NCBI GenBank assembly: GCA_020829665.1 | Contig: JAIVFT010000026.1 | Location: 39,799-71,798 of the forward strand | DNA: 32,000 nt | Direction of reading: 5' to 3' | DNA from: Nostoc sp. CHAB 5824 | Lineage (GTDB): Bacteria > Cyanobacteriota > Cyanobacteriia > Cyanobacteriales > Nostocaceae | Shown: in pieces, positions 1 through 32,000 of the stretch | Position numbering within the stretch: position 1 is the stretch's first letter | Layout of the letters: every line of letters starts with the position of its first letter | Translations under genes and position numbers: made by a program | Notes under the pieces: generated by a model | Databases searched by the model: none | Told to the model about the DNA's origin: nothing | What the model saw: the letters and a program-made list of their open reading frames with translations, nothing else

Positions 1-606
1 ATTCTGTTCTTTGAAGATATTTAAAGCTTTTTCTAAAGAAGATAACGCCTCGTCTTTTTTATTTGTTTGCCACAATGCTAGTGCAAAATTAGTCAGCCCC
101 TCGCCATAATTAGGATTAATTTCTAGAGCTTTTTTATATTCAGTAATGGCTTCTTCCCAGCGACTTTGGCTAGCGTAAACAATACCGATGGCATTGTGAG
201 CTAGAGCGTATTTTGGCTGGAGGCGAATGGCTTCTTGATAAGAGCTAATTGCTTCTTCTGGCTTCTTTTGCCGAAAAAGCACATTTCCTAGTTGAAAGTG
301 TCCGAAGGCGTCTTCTGGGAATTGTTTAATGAATTTACGTAAATTTTCCTCTGCACCTGTCAAGTCTCCCTGATTAAATAAAGCATTGGCTTGTTGCAGC
401 ATCTGCGATCGCTCTGATGGGCCTGTGTCTGAAAACTGTGCTAGTTTTTGTGGTTGTCTCTCAACAGACTGTTCAGACGAATGCAAAGAAACTTTTGCAG
501 TCACCGCTGACACTAATGGTGATAGACCAATTACACTGATAATACTCAGCGCCATGCCGCTAAAAGATTGAACAAATGCTGATTTCAGTTTGCGCTTCAC
601 CTTCAT
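1..606 (-). CDS. TPR repeat protein with an N-terminal signal or anchor sequence; partial, the C-terminus lies beyond the window start
   Basis: My own reverse-strand translation from the ATG at 606-604 gives MKVKRKLKSAFVQSFSGMALSIISVIGLSPLVSAVTA, followed by TPR-like units (GHFQLGNVLFRQKKPEEAISSYQEAIRLQPKYALAHNAIGIVYASQSRWEEAITEYKKALEINPNY). The frame stays open to position 1. It is absent from the ORF track because it is truncated. Confidence 0.75.
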   Translation of the reverse strand, partial: MKVKRKLKSAFVQSFSGMALSIISVIGLSPLVSAVTAKVSLHSSEQSVERQPQKLAQFSDTGPSERSQMLQQANALFNQGDLTGAEENLRKFIKQFPEDAFGHFQLGNVLFRQKKPEEAISSYQEAIRLQPKYALAHNAIGIVYASQSRWEEAITEYKKALEINPNYGEGLTNFALALWQTNKKDEALSSLEKALNIFKEQN

Positions 607-688
607 CGCCCTGAATGCCTCAATAGTGTTCTAATCTTTATGATAAATTGAGGTGCGTTATCGCGTAATGCATCACAAGACAGACGGT

Positions 689-712
689 AAGGGCGCACAT
701 ATATGCGCCCTT
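689..712 (-). terminator. Hairpin aagggcgca/tgcgccctt with a 6-nt loop, 23 nt downstream of the orphan acs 3' fragment
   Basis: Perfect 9-bp inverted repeat at 689-697 and 704-712. There is no clear U-tract, so its function as a terminator is uncertain. Confidence 0.3.
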
Positions 713-734
713 AATTAGGCTCATTTGGAATTAT

Positions 735-905
735 TTACGTACCTTCTTGCAATTTATCTAATACGCTTCTATTTTCTAATGTCGAAGTATCTCCAGATAC
801 CTCTTGTCCGGCGGCTAGATTCCGCAGCAAGCGGCGCATAATCTTACCCGATCGCGTTTTGGGCAAAGCATCGGTAAAGCGAATTTCTCCAGGACGAGCG
901 ATCGC
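735..905 (-). pseudogene. Orphan duplicate of the acs 3' end (last 56 codons plus stop)
   Basis: 171 nt align without gaps to 1904-2074 (offset 1169), with about 9 mismatches. It would encode ...[51 protein letters not shown]. Homology starts at the stop codon and ends at a HIP1 site (gcgatcgc, 898-905). Confidence 0.85.
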
Positions 906-941
906 CCAGACACTGAGAATGATTATCTTAATTTAGAGCTT

Positions 942-1265
942 TCATGCACTAGCAGCTAGCTCTGATTCAGGTAGAAAAGCTAAAACGATATCTGTTGGAG
1001 AAACACCCATCCCTATCAAATCTTGGGTTATGCCGTGTTCTATGCCGTCATATTCTATATAAACCTTACCATTTTGTAGCGTGACATAAATTAGATTTCC
1101 TCGAACTCGCCGTCCTCTATCCCAACCCACTTGCATCAAAGCATACCTATCGTGCGTTTCATCAAAGATTGGCTCAAGTCGAATATCTCCATGCGAGGGA
1201 CGAAGTTTAGCATATTGTATAATTATCTGCTTGACTATTTCTCGATAGGTCGTGTTGGTATCCAT
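942..1265 (-). CDS. xisI: XisI family protein
   Basis: 107 aa. The Y..IVK...YA, MQVGWD, G..YIE.D and DIVLAF pattern is typical of XisI. It lies immediately downstream of, and overlaps, an xisH-like frame. Confidence 0.85.
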   Translation of the reverse strand: MDTNTTYREIVKQIIIQYAKLRPSHGDIRLEPIFDETHDRYALMQVGWDRGRRVRGNLIYVTLQNGKVYIEYDGIEHGITQDLIGMGVSPTDIVLAFLPESELAASA

Positions 1266-1699
1266 TGTATGACCTCTACTGTTTTTAAATTGATGATAAT
1301 TAATTTCAGTGGCATTTCTGTAATTACTAGTTCGCCAATTGGTTCATTGAAAATATTGCTATAGATAGTATCTGTAATCGCTAAATAGAGTTCTCGCTCT
1401 GGTTCTATTCTACTAAGTAAAAGCTGATAGAGTGTATACTGTCCAATCGCTTGTTCTAAATCAGCAATAACAGATTGACCGCGAAAATCTTTAATTTCAA
1501 TTGCTATTCGCTGATTTTCTTTTGTTGCACCGATAAAATTTCCTTGAGCTTGGTTAACTGTTGATGATAAAGTAGCAGCCAAATCTATAAATAAGAATCT
1601 ATCCCCGTAAGAAATAACATAAGGAGCGTCAGTTATTTTCCAACCATCTTTAATAATCGCTTGCTAGACTAGATTGTGAATGCTATCTCTTGGTGGCAT
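1235..1699 (-). pseudogene. xisH: XisH family gene interrupted by an in-frame TAG (complement of 1664-1666)
   Basis: Translation from the ATG at 1699-1697 gives MPPRDSIHNLV*QAIIKDGWKITDAPYVISYGDRFLFIDLAATLS..., continuous with the track ORF 1235-1582. The N-terminus matches the XisH pattern (..KD..H..V..A..KDGW.IT.DP) except for the stop at codon 12. Confidence 0.75.
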
Positions 1700-1774
1700 T
1701 AATTAATCAAAAGTAAGTTGATACTAGGATGTATTTGATAGCTATGTATAACGGATCATATTGTGAGCCTCATA

Positions 1775-1806
1775 GAAAGGCATCTCCAATATAGGAAATG
1801 CCTTTC
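1775..1806 (-). terminator. Hairpin downstream of the intact acs stop codon
   Basis: gaaaggcatctcc / ggaaatgcctttc forms a 13-bp stem with one mismatch and a 6-nt loop. It is preceded (1808-1890) by a dispersed-repeat-like hairpin segment containing gggggaaaccccc. Confidence 0.35.
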
Positions 1807-1903
1807 CCTTCGGGTTCAGCAGTCGCTCATGGGGGAAACCCCCATCGCCCTTGGCGTCTCCCCTTGGGAGAAGACCGCGCTGCTTCACCAAAATCTAAAA
1901 TTT

Positions 1904-3877
1904 CTATGTGCCTTCCCGCAATTTATCTAATACGCTTCTATCTTCCAATGTCGAAGTATCTCCAGATACCTCTTGTCCGGCGGCTAGATTCCGCAGCAAG
2001 CGGCGCATAATCTTACCCGATCGCGTTTTGGGCAAAGCGTCTGTAAAGCGAATTTCTCCAGGACGAGCGATCGCACCAATTTCTTTGACAACGTGCAGTT
2101 TGAGTTCTTTACTCAGTTCCTCACTTCCCTGATAAGTGCCTTCTAAAGTCACAAAAGCAACTACTTCTTCGCCCTTAAGCTCATCCGGTTTACCTACTAC
2201 CGCCGCTTCTGCAACTGCTGGGTGAGAAACTAAAGCTGATTCTACTTCCATTGTACCGAGCCGATGTCCTGATACATTTAATACGTCATCAATCCGACCC
2301 ATTACCCAGAAGTAGCCGTCCTCATCAAGTCTAGCGCCATCACCAGCAAAGTAAGTATAGTTACCATCTTTGGGTGGAATGTGTTCCCAATAGGTGCGGC
2401 GGAAGCGTTCTGGATCGCCGTAGACTGTCCGCATCATTCCTGGCCAAGGATGGCGCACTGCTAGATAACCGCCTTCGTTATTGGGTACGGTGTTTCCTTC
2501 TAAATCCACGACATCTGCAATAATTCCTGGGAAGGGAAGAGTTGCTGAACCAGGTTTGGTGGGAATTGCTCCTGGTAACGGTGTTATCATGATACCGCCG
2601 GTTTCCGTTTGCCACCAGGTATCAACAATTGGACAGCGATCGCCACCAATTACTTTGTGATACCACATCCAAGCTTCTGGGTTAATCGGTTCGCCGACGG
2701 TTCCCAGCAAACGCAACGAAGACAAGTTTCGCGCATTGGGATGTTGTTCGCCCATCTTAATAAATGCCCGAATTGCTGTAGGTGCTGTATAAAAAATATT
2801 CACGCCGTATTTTTCAATTACATCCCAGAAACAGCCAGGATTAGAAGCACGGGGCGCACCTTCGTACATCACCGTGGTTGCACCGTTGGAAAGAGGCCCG
2901 TAGACAATGTAGCTGTGTCCCGTAATCCAACCTACATCGGCGGTACACCAATATACATCTGTGTCTTGTAGGTCGAATATCCACTTAGTGGTGATATGGG
3001 TATACAAATTATAACCAGCAGTTGTATGCACTACACCCTTCGGTTTGCCAGTGCTGCCAGAAGTGTAGAGAACAAACAGCATATCTTCACTGTCCATAGG
3101 TTCGGCGGGACAATCTGCTGATACTCCTTTTTGCAAATCATGCCACCAATGATCGCGTCCACCCAACTGCATATAAGTTTCCTGTCCAGTGCGCTTGACA
3201 ACTAGGACATTTTCAACGCTAGGAACAGCACCATCAGCTAATGCTTTATCTACCTGTTCCTTCAAAGGAACGATCGCATCTTTGCGCCAACCACCATCAG
3301 CCGTGATTACCAGTTTAGCTTTGGCATCAATTAAGCGATCGCGCAAAGCTTCGGCACTAAAACCACCAAATACTACGCCGTGGGGTGCGCCAATTCGGGC
3401 ACAGGCTAACATAGCGATCGCAGCTTCGGGAATCATCGGCATATAAATACCAACGCGATCGCCTTTTTGTACACCCAGTTGCTTCAATACATTGGCAAAT
3501 TGGCAAACTTCCCGATGCAGTTGGGCGTAAGTTAGGGTACGCGAATCACCTGGTTCTCCTTCCCAAATCAATGCTGCTTTATTTTTGCGCCAGGTAGTGA
3601 GATGTCTGTCAAGGCAGTTGTAAGAAATATTAATTTTACCGCCAACGAACCACTTAGCAAAAGGTGGTTGCCAATCTAGTACTGTATCCCATTTTTGGAA
3701 CCATTCTAATTCTGTTCCAGCCAAATCTGCCCAAAATTGCTGTGGATCGGCTTTGGCTTTGTTATAGAGGCGCTGATACTCTTCCAGGCTTTTGATATGG
3801 GCATTTTGCGAGAATTCAGAGGCAGGATGAAATAGGCGATTCTCTTGGAGGATTGATTCTATAGTTGGTTGAGACAT
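1904..3877 (-). CDS. acs: Acetyl-CoA synthetase (AMP-forming)
   Basis: 657 aa, full-length Acs pattern: [29 protein letters not shown]......DGY....GR.DDV...SGHR.G..E.E and the C-terminal [11 protein letters not shown]. Confidence 0.97.
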
Positions 3878-4107: not shown

Positions 4108-4752
4108 ATGCCCCTCACTGTCGAAGCTAGTACTCTATCTCTCAACGATGTTCATCGCTTTCTCAAATTAGAAAAGCTTTCAAATGGTTCATTTACAAAT
4201 TTCTTAAGGCTAGAACTACTCTCTGACTTTGAACAGCAGGATTTATTACGAATCAGAGACGACTTTGATCGTTATTTAAATGCAGGTAAAATTTCTGAAG
4301 GTTTGGTTAAATTTATAACGATCGCACCATTAATGCGGTTAGCGGGATTTTACGATGTGCCGATTCGGTTGACAATGGAAGATAGCATTGCGATCGCAGT
4401 CGAAGATGAAGACAGAAGAATTACCGGACGGATGGATATTTTAGCAATTAATAGTCCTCAAAGTAATGTTGCGCCGCCATTTTGGGTTCTAGTGATTGAA
4501 ACAAAAAATAGTTCGGTTAATGTGATTGAGGGTTTACCTCAATTACTCACTTATGCTTTTAAAAGTTTAGATCAACAGCCATCAGTTTGGGGTTTGGTAA
4601 CTAATGGACAGCTTTATCAATTTGTTTATTTAAGACATGACAACCAGTCAACTTATGAGTTAATGCCATTATTAAATTTGAGTCAATCTCCAGATGCAAT
4701 TGAGTTATTGCAAGTTTTCAAAGCCATTTGTAAGTTACCAAATTTTCAGTAA
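4108..4752 (+). CDS. PD-(D/E)xK nuclease-like protein (HsdR N-terminal-domain-like)
   Basis: 214 aa. GRMDILAI ... WVLVIETKN resembles a D...E-x-K nuclease core. The family assignment is from memory and needs an HMM check. Confidence 0.55.
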   Translation: MPLTVEASTLSLNDVHRFLKLEKLSNGSFTNFLRLELLSDFEQQDLLRIRDDFDRYLNAGKISEGLVKFITIAPLMRLAGFYDVPIRLTMEDSIAIAVEDEDRRITGRMDILAINSPQSNVAPPFWVLVIETKNSSVNVIEGLPQLLTYAFKSLDQQPSVWGLVTNGQLYQFVYLRHDNQSTYELMPLLNLSQSPDAIELLQVFKAICKLPNFQ

Positions 4753-4774: not shown

Positions 4775-5503
4775 ATGTCTGAACCTGCTACCTTAGAAAT
4801 CATCTCTGATAATATTTCAGAAGACGAAATTCTTTTTCCTCCTGGCGATATACTGAGTGACGAACCACCCTTGGAAAGTGACCTGCACCGTGACCAAATT
4901 GATTTACTGATTCGCATACTTAAATTGTGGTGGCGAGATAGGCAAGATTTCTATGCTTCTGGCAATTTGACGATTTACTACAGTCCTAACCAGAAAAAAT
5001 CAGAACATTTCCGTGGCCCAGACTTTTTTGTAGTTTTGGGAACCCAGAAAAAAGACCGTAAGAGTTGGGTAGTTTGGCAAGAAGACGGCAAATACCCTAA
5101 CCTAATTGTGGAAATTTTGTCAAGCTCAACGGTAACAGTTGATAAAGGTTTAAAAAAACAAATTTACCAGGATACCTTCCGTACACCAGATTATTTCTGG
5201 TTTGACCCTGTAACAATGGAACTTCAGGGATTTCATTTAGTTGATGGGAAGTATCAAGAAATCCAAGTAACCACTGATGGACGTTTGTGGAGTCAGCAGT
5301 TAGAACTTTATTTGGGAGTTTATGAAGGTAAATTAAGATTCTTCACTACTGAAAATCAACTGATAGTATCATCAGAAGAATTGGCCCAACAAGAACGTTT
5401 ACGTGCCGAACAGGCAGAAGAACGTGCCCAACAAGCAGAGCAAGAAATTACTCGACTGCGGGAGGCTTTACGTACACAGGGCATCGACCTAGAAAATATT
5501 TAA
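4775..5503 (+). CDS. Uma2 family (DUF820) endonuclease with a C-terminal coiled-coil tail
   Basis: 242 aa. GPDFFVV ... IVEILSSST..DKG.K...Y is typical of Uma2. The tail EELAQQERLRAEQAEERAQQAEQEITRLREAL is common in cyanobacterial members. It starts 22 nt after the previous gene. Confidence 0.85.
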   Translation: MSEPATLEIISDNISEDEILFPPGDILSDEPPLESDLHRDQIDLLIRILKLWWRDRQDFYASGNLTIYYSPNQKKSEHFRGPDFFVVLGTQKKDRKSWVVWQEDGKYPNLIVEILSSSTVTVDKGLKKQIYQDTFRTPDYFWFDPVTMELQGFHLVDGKYQEIQVTTDGRLWSQQLELYLGVYEGKLRFFTTENQLIVSSEELAQQERLRAEQAEERAQQAEQEITRLREALRTQGIDLENI

Positions 5504-8312: not shown

Positions 8313-10445
8313 ATGAACCAAAGCAACCAAGATAAAGCCAAGGGCTGGCAAAATAAGGTTGAGGGTGGAACTGTTTATCAAGGCGATATTCGTATCTACA
8401 ATTCCCCTACTGGGCAGTTATACTCATCTCCTCCAAATAATATTCCTTATCGGGGTGTTGCGAACTTTGTCGGGCGGAATGAGAAACTTGTAGAACTACA
8501 TAAAAAATTGCTGCAAAATGACAACGCGGCAATTTTGGCTGTGGCTGGTATGGGAGGAATGGGTAAAACTGAACTGGCGACACAATACGCACAGCGCAAC
8601 AAAGTCAATTATCCTGGTGGGCTTTGCTGGTTAGATGCCAGAAAACTAGATTTAGCAGCAGAGATTGTGGAGTTTGCTAAGTTTTACATGAAACTGGAAG
8701 TACCGCGAACCTTATTGACTTCCCAGGAACAAGCAAAATGGTGCTGGCATAATTGGCAACCACAAACAGGACTAGTATTAGTAGTATTGGATAATGTTGA
8801 CGATGTGACTAACTGGGAAAATTCTCGCCAAGTTCTGCCAACAGATAACCGCTTCTGTATATTGATGACAACTCGGTTGCGAAATCTCGGTTCAACAGTT
8901 CAACAGATAACTTTGAATGAACTCTCACCAAACGATGCTTTAAATTTGTTGACAGCTTTGTTGGGTGAGAATGATAGGCGGGTGCAACGGGAACCACAAA
9001 CGGCAGCAAATTTATGTAAATGGCTGGGATATCTGCCTTTAGGTTTGCAATTAGTCGGCGCGTATTTGGCAGAAGATCCAAATTTGTCTTTGACAGAGAT
9101 TTTACAGCAATTACCAGCCCAGCAAAAATCTCAATTGGAAGCCGTATTTGAATTAAGCTGGCAACAACTCGATTCTATAACACAGCGTGTCGGTGAGTTG
9201 TTGAGTTTATTCGCCCCAGATATCATTCCTTGGCAAATAGTTGAATCTGTTAGTCAGCAGTTAAATTGGGCGAAGGTAGATGTTGACGAGGCGAGAAAGC
9301 AACTTTATAAGCGTCATTTAATTCAAAGCGTAGCAGAAGGAGAAAGTTGCTATAAAATTCATCCTTTAATTAGGGAGTTTTTGCAAGGAAAACAGGTAGA
9401 GTCAAAAATCGCCAACGAGTTACAACAAGCGATTTCCACAATTTTTGTAGAAATTGCTAAGACAATACCTGACTCTCTCACTATTGAGCATATCAAGTCA
9501 GTGCAACTGGCAATTCCCCATTTGGCTGAGGTTGCACAAAATCTGACTGCTGCTGTACAGGATGAAGATTTAATTTACATTTTCGTTGGCTTGGGTAGAT
9601 TCTATGAAGAACAAGGTTTATATGCCCTAGCAGAATCTTGGTGTCAGCAATGTTTATCAACGGTGCAAACTCGTTTGGGAGAAGAACATCCCAATGTTGC
9701 CACCAGCTTCAACAACCTGGGAGCAATTTACCAATCTCAAGGACGCGATGACCAAGCCGAACCGCTTTATCAGCAAGCTTTAGCACTGAGAAAACGCCTG
9801 CTGGGAGAAGAACATCCCTCTGTCGCCACCAGCCTAGCCTGCTTGGCAAATATCTACTCTTCTCAAGGACGCTACGACCAAGCCGAACCGCTTTATCTGC
9901 AAGCTTTAGAACTGAGAAAACGCCTGCTGGGAGAAGCAAATCCCTCTGTCGCCACCAGCCTGAACAACCTGGCATTACTCTACGAATTTCAAGGACGCTA
10001 CGACCAAGCCGAACCCCTGTTTCTGCAAGCTTTAGAACTTAATAAACGCCTGCTGGGAGATGCACATCCCTCTGTCGCCACCAACCTGAACAACCTGGCA
10101 AGTCTCTACAAATCTCAAGGACGCTACGACCAAGCCGAACCCCTGTTTCTGCAAGCTTTAGAACTTAATAAACGCCTGCTGGGAGAAGCACATCCCCATG
10201 TCGCCACCAGCCTGAACAACCTGGCAAATCTCTACAATTCTCAAAGACGCTACGACCAAGCCGAACCCCTGTATCTCCAAGCTTTAGAAATTCGTCAGCA
10301 GGTGTTTGGGGTAAATCATCCCAATACGGTTACTGTTCGGGAAAATCTAGAAAATCTTCAAGCTCAAATGAGTGCTAACCGTAAAGTTAAGAATAATGCT
10401 AATAATAATTCCTTGTGGGAGAAGTTTTTAGGGTTATTTGAGTGA
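8313..10445 (+). CDS. NLR-like STAND ATPase: N-terminal signalling motif, NB-ARC domain, then TPR (TPR_12-type) repeats
   Basis: 710 aa. Walker A is GMGGMGKTELA and Walker B is LVLVVLDNVDD, with NB-ARC-like LPLGLQLVGAYL. At least five 42-aa TPR units follow (HP.VATSLNNLA.LY.SQGRYDQAEPL.LQALEL.KRLLGE). Confidence 0.9.
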   Translation: MNQSNQDKAKGWQNKVEGGTVYQGDIRIYNSPTGQLYSSPPNNIPYRGVANFVGRNEKLVELHKKLLQNDNAAILAVAGMGGMGKTELATQYAQRNKVNYPGGLCWLDARKLDLAAEIVEFAKFYMKLEVPRTLLTSQEQAKWCWHNWQPQTGLVLVVLDNVDDVTNWENSRQVLPTDNRFCILMTTRLRNLGSTVQQITLNELSPNDALNLLTALLGENDRRVQREPQTAANLCKWLGYLPLGLQLVGAYLAEDPNLSLTEILQQLPAQQKSQLEAVFELSWQQLDSITQRVGELLSLFAPDIIPWQIVESVSQQLNWAKVDVDEARKQLYKRHLIQSVAEGESCYKIHPLIREFLQGKQVESKIANELQQAISTIFVEIAKTIPDSLTIEHIKSVQLAIPHLAEVAQNLTAAVQDEDLIYIFVGLGRFYEEQGLYALAESWCQQCLSTVQTRLGEEHPNVATSFNNLGAIYQSQGRDDQAEPLYQQALALRKRLLGEEHPSVATSLACLANIYSSQGRYDQAEPLYLQALELRKRLLGEANPSVATSLNNLALLYEFQGRYDQAEPLFLQALELNKRLLGDAHPSVATNLNNLASLYKSQGRYDQAEPLFLQALELNKRLLGEAHPHVATSLNNLANLYNSQRRYDQAEPLYLQALEIRQQVFGVNHPNTVTVRENLENLQAQMSANRKVKNNANNNSLWEKFLGLFE
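9681..10310 (+). repeat. Five tandem 126-bp units encoding 42-aa TPR repeats
   Basis: Units start at 9681, 9807, 9933, 10059 and 10185, each exactly 126 nt apart. Long stretches are identical at the nucleotide level (for example caaggacgctacgaccaagccgaacc). Confidence 0.9.
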
Positions 10446-26621: not shown

Positions 26622-27230
26622 ATGAAAATGACCACGCTGCTAATCCAAACTGAAAGCACACCCCTAAAGGTAAATTTACCCTCCCTTGTGCAGATGACAA
26701 ATGAGCAGTTTTACGAATTTTGTCAAGCCAATGGAGATTTGCGAATTGAGCGCACTGCTAATGGGGAAGTTATCATCATGCCACCAGCTTTTTCAGATAC
26801 GGGCAACCGTAACTTTAACATTGCTGCACAGCTTGGGAATTGGACTGAACAAGATGGCACTGGCATAGGCTTTGACTCTAGTACAGGTTTTACACTACCC
26901 AATGGAGCAATGCGTTCCCCTGATGCTTCTTGGATTGAACTGGAGCGCTGGAATACCTTAACAGATGCACAAAAAGCTTCATTTGCACCAATTTGTCCTA
27001 GCTTTGTGATTGAGTTACGCTCCTCTAGTGATCGCTTGATAAAATTACAGGAGAAAATGCAGGAGTACATCGATAACGGTGCATCACTAGGCTGGTTAAT
27101 TGATCGGCAAAATAGAAAAGTCTACATTTACCGTCCGAATCGAGAAGTTGAAATTTTGGATAATCCCGAAGCAGTTAGTGGCAATCTAGAATTACCAGGG
27201 TTTATCCTACGGATGGGCAAAATTTGGTAA
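26622..27230 (+). CDS. Uma2 family (DUF820) endonuclease
   Basis: 202 aa. F..F......R.E....GE.I.M.P, SPDASWI and PSFVIELRSSSD......KM.EYI.NG..LGWLID. Confidence 0.85.
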   Translation: MKMTTLLIQTESTPLKVNLPSLVQMTNEQFYEFCQANGDLRIERTANGEVIIMPPAFSDTGNRNFNIAAQLGNWTEQDGTGIGFDSSTGFTLPNGAMRSPDASWIELERWNTLTDAQKASFAPICPSFVIELRSSSDRLIKLQEKMQEYIDNGASLGWLIDRQNRKVYIYRPNREVEILDNPEAVSGNLELPGFILRMGKIW

Positions 27231-27241
27231 TTTGAGTCTTC

Positions 27242-27333
27242 CTAATGAGAAACTTGTGTTTTGAGAACGTTAGCAATTGCCTCAAGTATTCGCTGAGAGT
27301 AAAGTGATGTTCGTTGTTCGAGGAGCGATCGCA
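27242..27333 (-). pseudogene. Orphan fragment of the aroK 3' end with a 54-bp in-frame internal deletion
   Basis: 27242-27294 aligns to 31551-31603 and 27295-27333 aligns to 31658-31696, with a few mismatches. It would encode RSLLEQRTSLYSQ|RILEAIANVLKTQVSH*. It ends on the HIP1 site gcgatcgc and directly abuts the xisI stop codon (27334). Confidence 0.8.
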
Positions 27334-27669
27334 TTACGCTACGCCATAATCTGTATACTGACGCTTGTATGGAGCTTGCAAACCCAAGACAATATCCTCT
27401 CGTGGTACTCCCATCATCACTAATTCCTCTGCCGGATTGCGATCGGTTAAATTCTGTTGCAGCCAGATTTTGCCATCTTTAATATCAAAATGCATCACGC
27501 ATCGATAAATACGATTAAATCCTTGCCAACCGACATTCATCCATTGATAATGATTGCGTTCTGTGTCTAAAATGAGTTGGACTTCGACATTGTTATCCGA
27601 GACATCATCACTGGCATAGTTCGTCAACAATGTTTTAACATATTCTTGATATTTTGCTAGTTTATCCAC
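27334..27669 (-). CDS. xisI: XisI family protein
   Basis: 111 aa. Y.EYVK.LL..YA, W.NVGW, DIKDGKIW.Q.N and EDIVLG are typical of XisI. Confidence 0.85.
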   Translation of the reverse strand: MDKLAKYQEYVKTLLTNYASDDVSDNNVEVQLILDTERNHYQWMNVGWQGFNRIYRCVMHFDIKDGKIWLQQNLTDRNPAEELVMMGVPREDIVLGLQAPYKRQYTDYGVA

Positions 27670-28073
27670 TCTACAATCACCTCATCTACTAGATTGTAAA
27701 CAATTAATAGCACCTGGTACTGTTTGAGCGCAGTTTGAGTAAACTCCAGTTGGAAAAATGTTTTGTACGTATCCAATGGAACTGCTAAGTATAAGACTCG
27801 CTCTGGTTCATATCCTGCTAATGCTAGACGGTAAGTAAGAAATTGTCCCAAAGCAGAGTAAAAATCTGTAATGGCCGAGGGATTTAAAAAGCTTTTGATT
27901 TCAATTGCTATTTTTTCATTTCCTTTTTCTACGGCAATTATTTTCTCTACGCCTAAATCAATTTGGAAGTTTACTTACCCAAATTTAAACTTTAATGGAT
28001 CGCTCGTAATTATCTATTGTTCTTTTTGCAAAGCTTTTTTAACTGATTCATAAAAAATATCTTTTGCAGACAC
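27657..28073 (-). pseudogene. xisH: XisH family gene with two in-frame stops (TAG at 28016-28014, TAA at 27977-27975)
   Basis: Translation from the GTG at 28073 gives VSAKDIFYESVKKALQKEQ*IITSDPLKFKFG*VNFQIDLGVEKIIAVEKGNEKIAIEIKSFLNPSAITDFYSALGQFLTYR..., continuous with the track ORF 27657-27851. The total of 139 codons is typical XisH length, and the first stop sits where the conserved W of KDGW is expected. Confidence 0.8.
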
Positions 28074-31550: not shown

Positions 31551-32000
31551 CTAATGAGAAGCTTGTGGTTTAAGAACGCTAGGAATTGCCTCGAGTATTC
31601 GCTTGGCAATGTCTTCAGGCATATCTCCCTCTCCCACGGTGATGTGCAAATCGGCTTGAGAGTAAAGTGGTGTTCGTTGTTCGAGGAGCGATCGCAATTT
31701 ACCTTTGGGATCAACATCTTGCAGTAGTGGTCTTGTGGTATCCTCAGCTAAACGGCTGTAAATGAGTTCAACTGGCGCATCTAGCCACACTATCAAACCG
31801 TGGTGCAGGTAACCCCAATTTTCTCGCCGCAGTACAATGCCTCCACCAGTTGCTATAGTCAACTTTGTAATAGCACAAACTTGTGAAAGCACGTCGCTTT
31901 CTAATTGGCGAAACCCTGCTTCACCAACTTCTGCAAATAACTGATTGATAGATTTACCTGTTACTTGGGCAATGACATTATCGGTATCGACAAACCTATA
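31551..32000 (-). CDS. aroK: Shikimate kinase; partial, the N-terminus lies beyond the window end
   Basis: The frame is open from 32000. My translation reads ...YRFVDTDNVIAQVTGKSINQLFAEVGEAGFRQLESDVLSQVCAITKLTIATGGGIVLRRENWGYLHHGLIVWLD...PLLQ, which fits the AroK pattern. Confidence 0.9.
   Translation of the reverse strand, partial: YRFVDTDNVIAQVTGKSINQLFAEVGEAGFRQLESDVLSQVCAITKLTIATGGGIVLRRENWGYLHHGLIVWLDAPVELIYSRLAEDTTRPLLQDVDPKGKLRSLLEQRTPLYSQADLHITVGEGDMPEDIAKRILEAIPSVLKPQASH

Follow-up and report, generated by a model that had tools for sequence, protein, structure and literature searches.

The window, a stretch of 32,000 nucleotides from Nostoc sp. CHAB 5824, contains close to its start the acetyl-CoA synthetase gene acs, a small cassette with xisH and xisI, and a TPR-repeat gene that is syntenic at all related loci; a second xisHI pair and a shikimate kinase gene lie towards its other end (Table 1). 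The first cassette is bracketed by two direct copies of the acs 3' end, which by alignment and count differ at 9 of 171 nt, and a match of this length at 95% identity rules out chance. In the repeat search they formed the single repeat family at the locus (729-905 against 1898-2074, ungapped, 94% identical). Seven of the mismatches fall within 43 nt of the stop codon and two at about 33-36 nt from the HIP1 octamer GCGATCGC, which is the exact end of both copies. Past HIP1 the flanks are unrelated (ccagacact versus accaatttc), and beyond the stop codon a weak likeness continues for 6 nt more. The window has 35 HIP1 octamers where 0.24 would be expected, and the octamer inside acs is kept at the same position of the gene across Nostocales.

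Table 1. Features of the acs and shikimate kinase loci (window coordinates).
Feature	Position	Strand	Basis
TPR-repeat gene, runs off the window start, conserved downstream neighbour	1..606	-	Pfam TPR families
Native spacer of 'empty-allele' type, hairpin at 691-710, downstream of copy A	680..734	-	comparison with related loci
Copy A, displaced and non-functional acs 3' end, TAA stop, abuts native spacer	735..905	-	repeat alignment, collinearity with L029
HIP1 octamer at the novel junction, cassette tail/copy A	898..905	.	alignment, motif search
Cassette tail, 36 nt, xisI stop to junction	906..941	-	homologous in L085, L174, L175, L081
xisI, intact, 107 aa	942..1265	-	Pfam XisI (PF08869) 1.2e-31
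xisH pseudogene	1235..1699	-	Pfam XisH (PF08814) 4.6e-45
Palindromic hairpin upstream of xisH	1775..1806	.	inverted repeat; conserved in occupied alleles L081, L085, L087, L090
Dispersed SDR/MITE-like repeat between acs stop and hairpin	1803..1887	-	comparison, database matches
Copy B, working last 171 nt of acs, internal HIP1 to TAG stop	1904..2074	-	repeat alignment
acs (acetyl-CoA synthetase), intact, 657 aa	1904..3877	-	ORF; Pfam ACAS_N, AMP-binding, AMP-binding_C
HIP1 octamer inside acs (codons G-A-I-A), acs-internal duplication end	2067..2074	.	motif search
HIP1 (27325-27332) and shikimate kinase 3'-end pseudo-copy through TAG	27242..27333	-	alignment
xisI2, intact, 111 aa	27334..27669	-	Pfam XisI 6.4e-45
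xisH2 pseudogene, two in-frame stops	27657..28073	-	translation; Pfam XisH 4.4e-51
Shikimate kinase gene, partial at window end	31551..32000	-	Pfam SKI 9.5e-42

Since acs lies on the minus strand and ends at 1904, copy B is its working 3' end, and the protein end that it encodes agrees with that of relatives. Copy B keeps the consensus at a D and an R that are invariant in all compared Acs proteins, whereas copy A carries D-to-N and R-to-Q at these residues and is a decaying pseudogene of the old acs end. As a point of annotation, the 43-codon ORF at 735-866 is a gene-end relic and not a gene.

Between the copies lie 998 nt (906-1903) that contain xisI, an xisH with a nonsense mutation, the palindromic hairpin and the dispersed repeat, so that xisH and xisI are the only coding content of the insert. 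The XisI ORF covers profile positions 1-101 of 110 (relatives in the PDB: 3D7Q and 2NWV) and XisH covers positions 1-133 of 134 (relatives: 2OKF and 2INB), the latter being interrupted by a single TAG at codon 12 (1664-1666) where relatives have AAG; the intact comparison allele is that of related locus L081. The two genes are co-oriented and overlap by 31 nt. At the acs locus xisH has been inactivated in five of six lineages, each time by a different lesion, and is thus recurrently lost while xisI is retained and kept under purifying selection (dN/dS 0.13-0.30 over six alleles). The dispersed repeat is present once in the window and has 80-90% matches in Nostoc plasmids, in parts that carry no annotation; it is missing in L081 and L085, and L087 has a related insert at the same site.

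No integrase or transposase domain was found by domain search in the scanned window ORFs of at least 90 aa, nor any recombinase domain in the called genes of related loci, and the repeat search found no inverted repeat pairing the cassette ends. PADLOC and other functional searches gave no match for xisHI. These results bear out the preliminary description of the window, which had reported 171-nt direct repeats with about nine mismatches mostly near the stop, a breakpoint on HIP1 with abrupt loss of similarity, an interval containing xisI, a disrupted xisH and hairpin repeats, to which the dispersed repeat is now added, and the absence of an integrase or transposase.

That description had also called for a search for empty sites in related Nostocales, and four were found (L029, L006, L001 and L002), in which a single acs 3' end is followed directly by the spacer and the TPR gene. 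L029, from a Nostoc metagenome-assembled genome, is the closest backbone: its acs is 94.7% identical in nucleotides to that of the window, and window 905-1 is collinear with L029 1206-2108 at 93.4%. On both sides of the cassette the nearest backbone relatives are L029 and then L006. Other alleles are occupied and have no second acs end, with the order acs-xisH-xisI-TPR (L081/82, L085, L087, L089 and L090). The sequence 906-1903 occurs only in occupied alleles and the sequence 680-734 only in empty ones (found in L029 and in part in L006 and L002, and missing from every scar-less occupied allele), and the window therefore holds both allelic spacers in tandem. The copy tails follow the same division: that of copy B is CA TAG plus AAATTTTAGATTTTGG, the occupied type, its stop codon type and next 16 nt being as in L081 and L085, and that of copy A is TAA plus ATAATTCC..., the empty type. 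Copy B joins acs and copy A joins the native downstream sequence; the copy B/cassette junction is ancestral in occupied alleles, leaving that between cassette tail and HIP1 as the sole novel one.

This two-haplotype content contradicts an origin by internal rearrangement, which we regard as very improbable. Had two HIP1 sites on a single occupied chromosome undergone unequal exchange or replication slippage, HIP1 would lie at the boundary, and cyanobacteria are polyploid (PMC4390886), but the resulting tandem duplication predicts a second cassette or an occupied-type spacer after copy A, where the empty-allele spacer is found. In its other form, equally improbable, a staggered cut of about 177 nt would leave a long target-site duplication; this needs both junctions to be novel, when one is ancestral, and neither terminal inverted repeats nor a transposase are present. 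An assembly artefact that joined the occupied and empty haplotypes of a mixed sample would be built from haplotypes that both occur in nature, and exact matching gave no record of the window's proteins. It is nevertheless scarcely credible: the parents have only 8 nt in common at the junction, which would not suffice for a k-mer misjoin, nine sites distinguish the copies, the independent contig L175 has the same junction, and the scar at the second locus, described below, is reproduced in two other assemblies.

Across Nostoc the acs locus presents a graded series, from empty through the full scar of the window, a scar cut to 49 nt and HIP1 alone, to no scar. In L175 xisI is followed by 36 nt, HIP1 and 49 nt of acs 3' sequence before truncation; L085 and L174 keep HIP1 at the cassette-tail position with unrelated sequence after it, and L081 has a 14-nt deletion at this junction. 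The junction position (CAGTGT.... then GCGATCGC) is identical in the window, L175, L085 and L174, and by comparison with L175 the HIP1 at the cassette tail of L085 and L174 may be a remnant of the duplicated acs HIP1. Whatever the scenario, the acs locus has undergone no fewer than two events with HIP1-edge precision. Copies A and B differ from sampled occupied alleles at 17-29 sites, more than from each other, implying either a very closely related donor or homogenisation of the copies by gene conversion; should the scar have the age that its occurrence in L175 suggests, their 95% identity needs gene conversion or repeated re-insertion.

The best explanation of this structure, and on balance a probable one, is a Campbell-type insertion-duplication produced by host homologous recombination together with a join at the HIP1 edge. 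The topology is the one that the preliminary description had proposed: the insert lies between direct copies of one target, of which one is contiguous with the upstream part of the gene and the other with the native downstream sequence, single-copy unoccupied target sites exist, and acs, as was also proposed, stays a complete ORF through its replacement 3' end. DNA from a donor haplotype with xisH-xisI just downstream of acs would have entered an 'empty' haplotype (acs, hairpin, TPR gene), bringing the donor acs 3' end and the cassette. One homologous exchange within the acs 3' end, either as a single crossover with a circularised fragment or through homology-facilitated illegitimate recombination (HFIR), would be followed by a non-homologous join exactly at the edge of the conserved HIP1 inside acs. 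The product would read acs, HIP1 with the new 171-nt end (the working copy B), xisH, xisI, then HIP1 with copy A, the native spacer and the TPR gene, and acs would never be interrupted. The 171-nt repeats would permit RecA-type excision to a perfect empty site and a 1,169-nt circle, which could re-enter empty alleles through acs homology; such excision and re-entry would fit the patchy presence and absence of the cassette among close relatives.

Host recombination would drive this process, probably after natural transformation; the scar points to such recombination at a cassette that neighbours a conserved gene. We infer the intermediate (circular or one-ended), the direction of transfer and the cause of the join on HIP1, for which a break at HIP1 or the use of the 8-nt palindrome as microhomology may be responsible. 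With xisH dead here and xisI under purifying selection, xisHI is most likely a passenger. One-sided homology in Escherichia coli gave 56 of 60 recombinants with a duplication of 109-950 bp of the homologous segment, which the authors put down to a circular molecule integrating by single crossover (PMC3240628). Such crossover is said to be common in cyanobacteria (PMC13398943), and HIP1 has been tied to illegitimate or site-specific recombination and to transformation efficiency (PMC4390886; bioRxiv 10.1101/2024.09.10.611283).

The same structure also results from the reciprocal event, the capture of an empty 3' end and its spacer by an occupied genome. The window lineage would then always have been acs-xisHI-TPR and would have taken up an empty-type fragment reaching from the acs HIP1 to the TPR gene, by homologous exchange on the TPR side and a HIP1-to-HIP1 join on the other. 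The HIP1 followed by non-acs sequence at the cassette tails of L085 and L174 suggests that the cassette may own a pairing HIP1, and against L029 dS is 0.11 on the TPR side and 0.25 in acs. Nevertheless we consider this polarity unlikely, as the ratio of acs to TPR dS is likewise about 2 in the comparisons with L081 and L087 and is not specific to L029, and the nearest backbone relatives on both sides are empty. Moreover, dS between the window and L081/85/87 is 0.10-0.17 for xisI and xisH, 0.35-0.39 for acs and 0.18-0.41 for other backbone genes; the cassette is thus below every backbone gene in the same genomes, which fits a cassette younger than the backbone and is consistent with its moving between lineages. 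Occupied and empty alleles intermingle in the acs tree.

The duplication layout is not confined to acs. At the shikimate kinase locus the layout is again gene, xisH, xisI, HIP1, and a pseudo-copy of the gene 3' end starting from an internal HIP1. The working 3' end of shikimate kinase runs from its internal HIP1 (31688-31695) to TAG at 31551-31553, and the HIP1 next to the pseudo-copy lies one nt after the xisI2 stop; the pseudo-copy itself lacks 54 nt internally and is mismatched at 7 of 91 nt. Two other assemblies (L172 and L173) share this scar, deletion included, and also encode an identical XisI2 protein. For annotation, the fragment 27242-27333 is a gene-end relic and not a gene. On an unrelated contig (L104) the xisHI layout recurs at an EF-G-like gene, with a 150-nt duplication of 96% identity that starts at HIP1. 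The survey of xisHI loci suggested by the preliminary description was accordingly positive at the shikimate kinase locus (27242-28073 and 31551-32000) and at L104.

The gene-end scar is a real and recurrent signature. It surrounds xisHI in the absence of HIP1 in L166/169/170, L169 having an xisHI pair of a GC-rich organism, and it brackets a hicA cassette (L094), a PIN cassette (L011) and a 283-aa ORF (L146); in a Microcoleus metagenome-assembled genome (L012) an RHH-like cassette at the acs 3' end has a 158-nt scar that starts 7 nt after the same acs HIP1. The specificity to xisHI or HIP1 that had been suggested is not supported by these cases. In the approximately 700 kb scanned, however, HIP1-exact scars with HIP1 in both copies all adjoin xisHI (WIN1, WIN2/L172 and L104), a hint of some xisHI specificity that runs contrary to a purely generic model.

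This bears on the idea that xisHI are mobile HIP1-bounded cassettes and themselves the agent, as a non-autonomous or self-mobilising unit in which an intact XisH, a PD-(D/E)XK nuclease controlled by XisI, putatively cuts HIP1. A unit with HIP1 at its bounds, made up of the gene 3' end and xisHI, would leave the chromosome, form a circle and enter an empty allele at its matching HIP1, by homing or by cut-and-ligate. The conserved genes behind which it settles would stay whole, and xisH would decay after fixation of the cassette. In accordance with such a role, the 3'-end duplication starts at most 1 nt from an internal HIP1 at three independent loci (two in the window and L104), and in the same 700 kb direct repeats HIP1-bounded on one side only were found nowhere else except in one paralogous gene family. 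HIP1 lies within 20 nt past the xisI stop at 7 of 48 loci against 10 of 221 control ORFs, a mild enrichment in small samples centred on xisI or acs, repeats flanking xisHI are direct at about 11 distinct loci and inverted at 4, and the family of XisH has a nuclease fold, for which 2OKF and 2INB are solved structures (PMC3424549, PMC4853749).

We nonetheless judge this agency to be rather improbable. The autonomous or homing mobility that the preliminary description had attributed to xisHI is at odds with the xisH pseudogenes, carrying different lesions, at both window loci and in the five acs-locus lineages. Movement to new loci fares no better: the closest XisI homologues (83-94% identity) all lie at the same acs-TPR locus, most of them without a duplication, and cassette divergence is roughly parallel to acs divergence. 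The duplicated segment is always the local gene's own end, as predicted by homology-dependent allelic transfer and not by movement to new targets. The scarred xisHI pair of L169 without any HIP1, the scarred hicA, PIN and RHH cassettes, and the lack of a PADLOC or other functional match likewise count against xisHI as the agent.

We compared the acs locus with known systems. Some integrative elements target gene 3' ends and supply a replacement end, as tRNA/tmRNA islands and prophages do. The acs cassette resembles them in that the target gene stays intact, the insert provides its 3' end and attL/attR-like direct repeats result, but it has no integrase or recombinase in it or nearby, its 'att' is 171 nt of ordinary coding sequence and its cargo is two small genes. 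Neisseria has minimal mobile elements, in which the cassette lying between conserved genes varies and is exchanged by transformation and flanking homology. The acs locus likewise is conserved with alternative contents (empty or xisHI) and no mobility genes in the cassette; unlike those elements, which have homology on both flanks and no duplication, it has one HIP1-edge joint that leaves a repeat. Transposons, IS elements and MITEs differ in having a transposase or paired cassette-end inverted repeats, and here the duplication is 171-177 nt long with one junction ancestral. Set beside type II toxin-antitoxin pairs, in which one of two small overlapping genes encodes an enzyme-fold toxin that its partner neutralises, the cassette shows the 31-nt overlap and the repeated loss of xisH with xisI retained, and has no PADLOC match.

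Closest is insertion-duplication by single crossover or HFIR, which shares the one-sided homology, the direct duplication flanking the insert, the absence of an element recombinase and reversibility through the repeats; the 171 nt of acs fall inside the experimental range of 109-950 bp (PMC3240628). Unlike the experimental products, the acs scar is a natural chromosomal fossil that has accrued about 5% divergence, with a non-homologous joint exactly on HIP1 and recurrence at several genes. In the Rhs, CDI and T6SS effector displacement arrays, HFIR-like insertion leaves 'orphan' 3' ends and immunity genes (PMC5361080). As there, entry uses a conserved upstream anchor, and the old 3' end is pushed downstream and kept, with stacked remnants (copy B, copy A and an older acs 3' relic downstream of the TPR gene itself in L029 and L006); in contrast, the displaced acs ends are the same housekeeping gene end without variable toxin tips, and the cargo is unrelated to the anchor. 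XisH and XisI belong to the fdxN element of Anabaena PCC 7120 (Ramaswamy et al. 1997, as cited in PMC4874684), with which the cassette shares the families PF08814 and PF08869, the relatives 2OKF and 3D7Q and the overlapping gene pair; it differs in lacking an XisF-type serine recombinase in scanned ORFs of at least 90 aa or related loci, in interrupting no gene, in having no developmental excision context and in its xisH pseudogene. Endpoints exactly on GCGATCGC are shared with HIP1-associated plasmid recombination in PCC 7002 (Akiyama et al. 1998), HIP1-promoted excision (Robinson et al. 1997) and an SDR5 insertion within HIP1 (all three summarised in PMC4390886); those cases concern plasmid or cloned-DNA assays and tiny repeats, and the acs locus a chromosomal cassette gain with gene-end duplication. 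In the literature searched we found no description of such a scar in cyanobacteria.

The acs-locus scar is best read as a known kind of event, insertion-duplication, in a new form with a HIP1-edge join. It documents in nature, at the level of sequence, how a housekeeping gene acquires a small accessory cassette beside it and stays undamaged, and both parental haplotypes and several stages of decay survive in related genomes. The locus joins two puzzles, the role of the hyper-abundant HIP1 and the many xisH-xisI pairs without an XisF recombinase. Rearrangement endpoints fall repeatedly and exactly on HIP1, at two loci of the window, on one unrelated contig and in further events at the acs locus. 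If general, this would support HIP1 as a mark of sites of DNA breakage or joining during gene exchange, and would provide a searchable signature of cassette gain in cyanobacteria, a 3'-end pseudo-copy starting at an internal HIP1, which predicts excised 1.17-kb circles, revertant empty alleles and the integration of HIP1-ended fragments. Were xisHI homing, doubtful as we hold it, to prove true, it would give a function to the abundant orphan xisHI pairs and a defined enzymatic partner to HIP1. The scar at the acs locus thus bears on what HIP1 does.

In the window, which is part of a Nostoc chromosome, the repeat search returned one ungapped family, which aligns 729-905 with 1898-2074 at 94% identity. 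Its two members are 3' ends of acs, a gene whose closest relative, among the matches listed, belongs to an uncultured Nostoc MAG (94.7% nucleotide identity): copy B is the working end of the gene, and copy A is a second end lying beyond it. In the alignment running from the HIP1 octamer, hyper-abundant in cyanobacteria, to the stop codon, 9 of 171 positions differ, two of them close to HIP1 and seven within the final 43 nt. Both copies end exactly with GCGATCGC (898-905 and 2067-2074), past which their flanks share no similarity, and 998 nt lie between them. The repeats, their HIP1 ends, the content of these 998 nt and the disruption of xisH, as we measured them, had been accurately described in the preliminary description, whose idea that the cassette (xisH and xisI) came with a replacement 3' end for acs also holds. 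Copy B keeps the consensus residues and copy A shows D-to-N and R-to-Q replacements where all other Acs proteins compared are invariant, indicating that copy A is the displaced, decaying end. At five of the nine mismatches, including all three conserved-residue changes, copy A has A and copy B has G; these could be clustered G-to-A changes that arose through a single-stranded intermediate, or chance.

The cassette genes encode members of the XisH (PF08814) and XisI (PF08869) families; PADLOC gave no match for either protein. As previously stated for this locus, no integrase or transposase domain was present among the scanned window ORFs. The window had no Rfam match at gathering thresholds, and the promoter and terminator scan of 600-2100 gave no signal above the shuffled expectation. 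In the plasmid collection the xisHI matches reached only 66-71% identity, so no close plasmid donor was found. The SDR-like repeat, positioned between the acs stop and the conserved hairpin, has 80-90% matches in unannotated regions of several Nostoc plasmids, and the occupied locus L087 has a related, not identical, insert at the same site.

Coordinates of features in the window and at the comparison loci (L-numbers)
Locus	Feature	Position	Strand	Remark
Window, acs	acs	1904..3877	-	ORF and Pfam
Window, acs	acs 3' end, copy B	1904-2074	-	working end
Window, acs	acs 3' end, copy A	735-905	-	displaced end
Window, acs	xisI	942..1265		intact
Window, acs	xisH	1235..1699		nonsense at codon 12 (AAG to TAG)
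Window, acs	palindromic hairpin	1775-1806		conserved
Window, acs	SDR/MITE-like dispersed repeat	1803-1887
L087	insert related to this repeat	~4440-4520
Window, kinase	xisI2	27334..27669		intact
Window, kinase	xisH2	27657..28073		two in-frame stops
Window, kinase	HIP1	27325-27332		one nt past xisI2 stop, followed by the pseudo-copy
Window, kinase	shikimate kinase 3'-end pseudo-copy	through own TAG, 27242-27244		54-nt internal deletion; 7 mismatches in 91 nt
Window, kinase	shikimate kinase gene	31551-32000		working 3' end, from internal HIP1 (31688-31695) to TAG (31551-31553)
Window, kinase	insert relative to L172	28091-31550		3.46 kb
Window, kinase	Uma2 gene fragment	28166-28354		matches residues 104-157 of Uma2 at 26622-27230 (44% aa identity)
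Window	Uma2-family genes	4775-5503; 26622-27230		adjoin both xisHI regions
L094	gene-end duplication	3142-3251/4819-4928		110 nt, around hicA toxin cassette with neighbours
L011	gene-end duplication	12159-12297/13223-13361		139 nt, around PIN-domain toxin cassette; HIP1 at novel junction
L146	gene-end duplication	19-77/935-993		59 nt, around 283-aa ORF directly upstream of xisHI pair
L012 (Microcoleus MAG)	acs 3'-end duplication	5494-5651/6350-6507		158 nt, 97.5%
L029	degraded acs 3' end	2226-2318		right after TPR gene stop; tblastn E 2.5e-8
L006	degraded acs 3' end	9011-9127		right after TPR gene stop; tblastn E 2e-6
L167	two convergent xisH-xisI pairs	1804-3793		three repeat copies

Related loci were sampled by scanning contigs with Acs, the listed matches coming mostly from distant phyla and at least about ten loci being useful, and by looking up the closest XisI homologues; many Nostoc assemblies carry the same locus. 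The empty sites foreseen in the preliminary description exist: in L029, L006, L001 (N. linckia NIES-25) and L002 (Halotia), acs without the cassette runs directly into a spacer and a TPR gene, and window 905-1 aligns collinearly to L029 1206-2108 (93.4% identity). XisI proteins 83-94% identical to that of the window all lie at this acs locus, in the order acs, xisH, xisI and TPR gene. In most of these occupied alleles (L081/82, L085, L087, L089, L090, L174 and L175) the second acs end is absent. Matches to window 906-1903 are confined to occupied alleles, and matches to 680-734, the spacer and hairpin that follow copy A, to empty ones, so the window carries both allelic spacers in tandem, an arrangement that excludes a simple internal tandem duplication. 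The tails of the two copies are likewise of different types: copy B, with CA TAG before AAATTTTAGATTTTGG, has the tail of occupied alleles, and copy A, with TAA before ATAATTCC, that of empty ones. A long target-site duplication and a misassembly were also weighed and rejected.

The acs tree does not separate occupied from empty alleles: the window groups with L029, L081/85 with L006, and L090 with L001. Between the window and L081/85/87, dS was 0.10-0.17 for xisI and xisH, against 0.35-0.39 for acs and 0.18-0.41 for other backbone genes. The cassette values are thus two to three times below those of the adjacent acs in the same genome pairs, and this, the genes being short, is no more than suggestive of a passage of the cassette between lineages more recent than the divergence of the backbone. 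The spread of backbone values itself hints that recombination has made the region a mosaic. Sliding-window identity along acs revealed no clear mosaic breakpoint, so this measure does not place the homologous crossover. Because cassette dS is low and the nearest relatives (among the matches listed) are empty, we tentatively favour entry of the cassette into an empty allele over the opposite direction, in which an occupied allele captured the end of an empty one. Recombination between copies A and B would restore a perfect empty allele and release a circle of 1,169 nt bearing an arm of acs homology, and a single crossover of this circle into an empty allele would regenerate the same structure. 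L029 and L006 may accordingly be ancestral empties or revertants.

A Pfam scan of the remaining window revealed a second xisHI pair, at which the pseudo-copy of the shikimate kinase 3' end starts at the internal HIP1 of the kinase gene. Two other assemblies, L172 and L173, have the same scar (the gene-end duplication bracketing a cassette), with the kinase gene directly upstream of an xisH remnant. Compared with L172, an insert of 3.46 kb separates the kinase stop from xisH2 in the window, which has acquired this DNA since. Our first flank survey (gap of at most 3 kb, repeat of at least 50 nt) was blind to this locus, the copies being 3.46 kb apart and the pseudo-copy internally deleted. The insert contains an NMT1-like binding protein, a histidine kinase and a Uma2 gene fragment. 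Uma2-family genes (putative restriction-endonuclease-like) are found repeatedly around acs in relatives, in numbers and at positions that differ by genome.

Scanning metagenome contigs for XisI yielded 80 further loci. In L104 the end of an EF-G-like gene is duplicated (150 nt, 96%) around an intact xisH-xisI pair, both copies starting at most 1 nt from HIP1 and extending through the stop. Gene-end duplications with HIP1 at xisHI loci, the pattern that the preliminary description proposed surveying, therefore occur at the kinase locus and in L104. In L126/129 a 51-nt end of the upstream gene is duplicated around xisI alone; the upstream copy stops within HIP1 (GCGAT|CGC) and the downstream copy is degenerate there (GCGAT|tga). 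An 81-nt TPR gene-end duplication brackets a nonsense-mutated xisH and xisI in L166/169/170, whose GC-rich source organism lacks HIP1. About 65 distinct loci could be tested for repeats tightly flanking xisHI: about 11 had direct ones and 4 had inverted ones. In 6 of 17 direct-repeat families HIP1 lay within 2 nt of a boundary, with about one expected. We also scanned about 700 kb for HIP1 pairs with similar sequence on one side only, leaving out hits in the L167 tandem-repeat protein gene. The positives were the two window loci, L172 (the same event as the kinase locus), L104 and one paralogous gene family, and no case was found in the opposite orientation. The xisH-xisI pairs of L167 form an array-like series of repeat, pair, repeat, pair and repeat, with each repeat 97-115 nt long and ending in HIP1.

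The flank survey also found gene-3'-end duplications around hicA, PIN-domain, 283-aa ORF and RHH-like cargo, so the scar is not confined to xisHI. The duplication in L012 is independent and begins 7 nt past the same conserved acs HIP1; the roughly 700 nt it brackets hold a weak RHH-like ORF and a 95-aa ORF, and the contig ends at the second copy. A further acs 3' relic follows the TPR gene in L029 and L006, that of L006 having a degenerate HIP1 at its start and extending through the stop into the spacer, so the TPR gene was probably once inserted in the same way. It resembles an older insertion at that acs HIP1, in which case displaced acs ends would be stacked here. Counting the window xisHI, the Microcoleus cassette and the post-TPR relic, three events lie at or within 7 nt of the acs HIP1. 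In the window genome the position of the relic falls just beyond the left end of the window.

The 36-nt cassette tail that follows the xisI stop is conserved, and four genomes share the exact base of the junction. There, HIP1 is followed by the complete 171-nt acs end in the window, by acs sequence truncated after 49 nt in L175 (a more distant lineage, XisI 88%), and by unrelated DNA in L085 and L174. In L081 a 14-nt deletion removed most of the junction HIP1, and in L087, L089 and L090 divergence begins before the junction. Either a single old insertion-duplication was trimmed later, which would need a HIP1-edge-precise deletion in the L085/L174 line, or the cassette has its own HIP1, which would have recombined more than once with that of acs; as read from these junctions, both require at least two HIP1-edge-precise events at the acs locus. 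The HIP1 after xisI in L085 may be a parental cassette feature, which would imply a HIP1-by-HIP1 joint, or, judging by L175, a remnant of the duplicated acs HIP1.

At the acs locus xisH is inactive in five of six lineages, each by a different lesion: besides the nonsense codon of the window, we found an internal deletion (L085), a frameshift (L087), a gene reduced to its last 38 codons (L089) and a nonsense at codon 68 (L090). The alleles of L081 and L174 are intact. The gene is likewise dead at the second window locus and in L169. By contrast with these losses, xisI, which overlaps the inactivated xisH, is intact throughout and under purifying selection (dN/dS 0.13-0.30), a pattern that resembles, by analogy only, a harmful nuclease with a retained partner. 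Independent, repeated inactivation was also counted in L172, and TAG accounts for four of the five xisH nonsense codons seen. The recurrent inactivation argues against XisH-driven mobility in these genomes, and the homing of xisHI to gene 3' ends proposed in the preliminary description found no support, xisH being dead at both window loci and scars bracketing other cargo too. A mechanism specific to xisHI or HIP1 stays alive as a minority reading that we regard as improbable: all scars found with an exact HIP1 in both copies adjoin xisHI, and HIP1 is mildly enriched just after xisI stops (7/48 versus 10/221), but the xisH losses weigh against it.

In E. coli, one-sided homology produced a 109-950 bp duplication of the homologous segment in 56 of 60 recombinants, attributed by the authors to a single crossover of a circular molecule, with true HFIR accompanied by deletion in the minority (PMC3240628); natural arrays made up of displaced 3' ends and immunity genes have likewise been explained by HFIR (PMC5361080). 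The HIP1 literature ties the octamer to plasmid recombination, low-frequency excision and precise SDR5 insertion inside it (PMC4390886) and, recently, to the efficiency of transformation, for which it has been proposed to act like Chi or in uptake (bioRxiv 10.1101/2024.09.10.611283). DmtA and DmtC have been named as methylases that recognise HIP1. In the light of these experiments and of the HIP1 recombination literature, we read the window structure, from its sequence, as a cassette gained by host recombination. One homologous exchange within the acs end would be combined with one joint at the HIP1 edge, and the survivors would be the outcomes leaving acs intact. The joint may fall on HIP1 through breakage there or through use of the 8-nt GC-rich palindrome as microhomology, both of which fit.

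The locus differs from an fdxN-type element in having no XisF and no interrupted gene, and it is neither an integrase-borne island nor a transposon. In its working it resembles an insertion-duplication or HFIR product, as well as the Rhs and T6SS displacement arrays; its joint on HIP1 is what sets it apart. The searchable literature contains no description of this gene-end/HIP1 scar in cyanobacteria. The scar provides a searchable signature of cassette gain, and its junctions, natural and recurrent, are relevant to the question of what HIP1 does.
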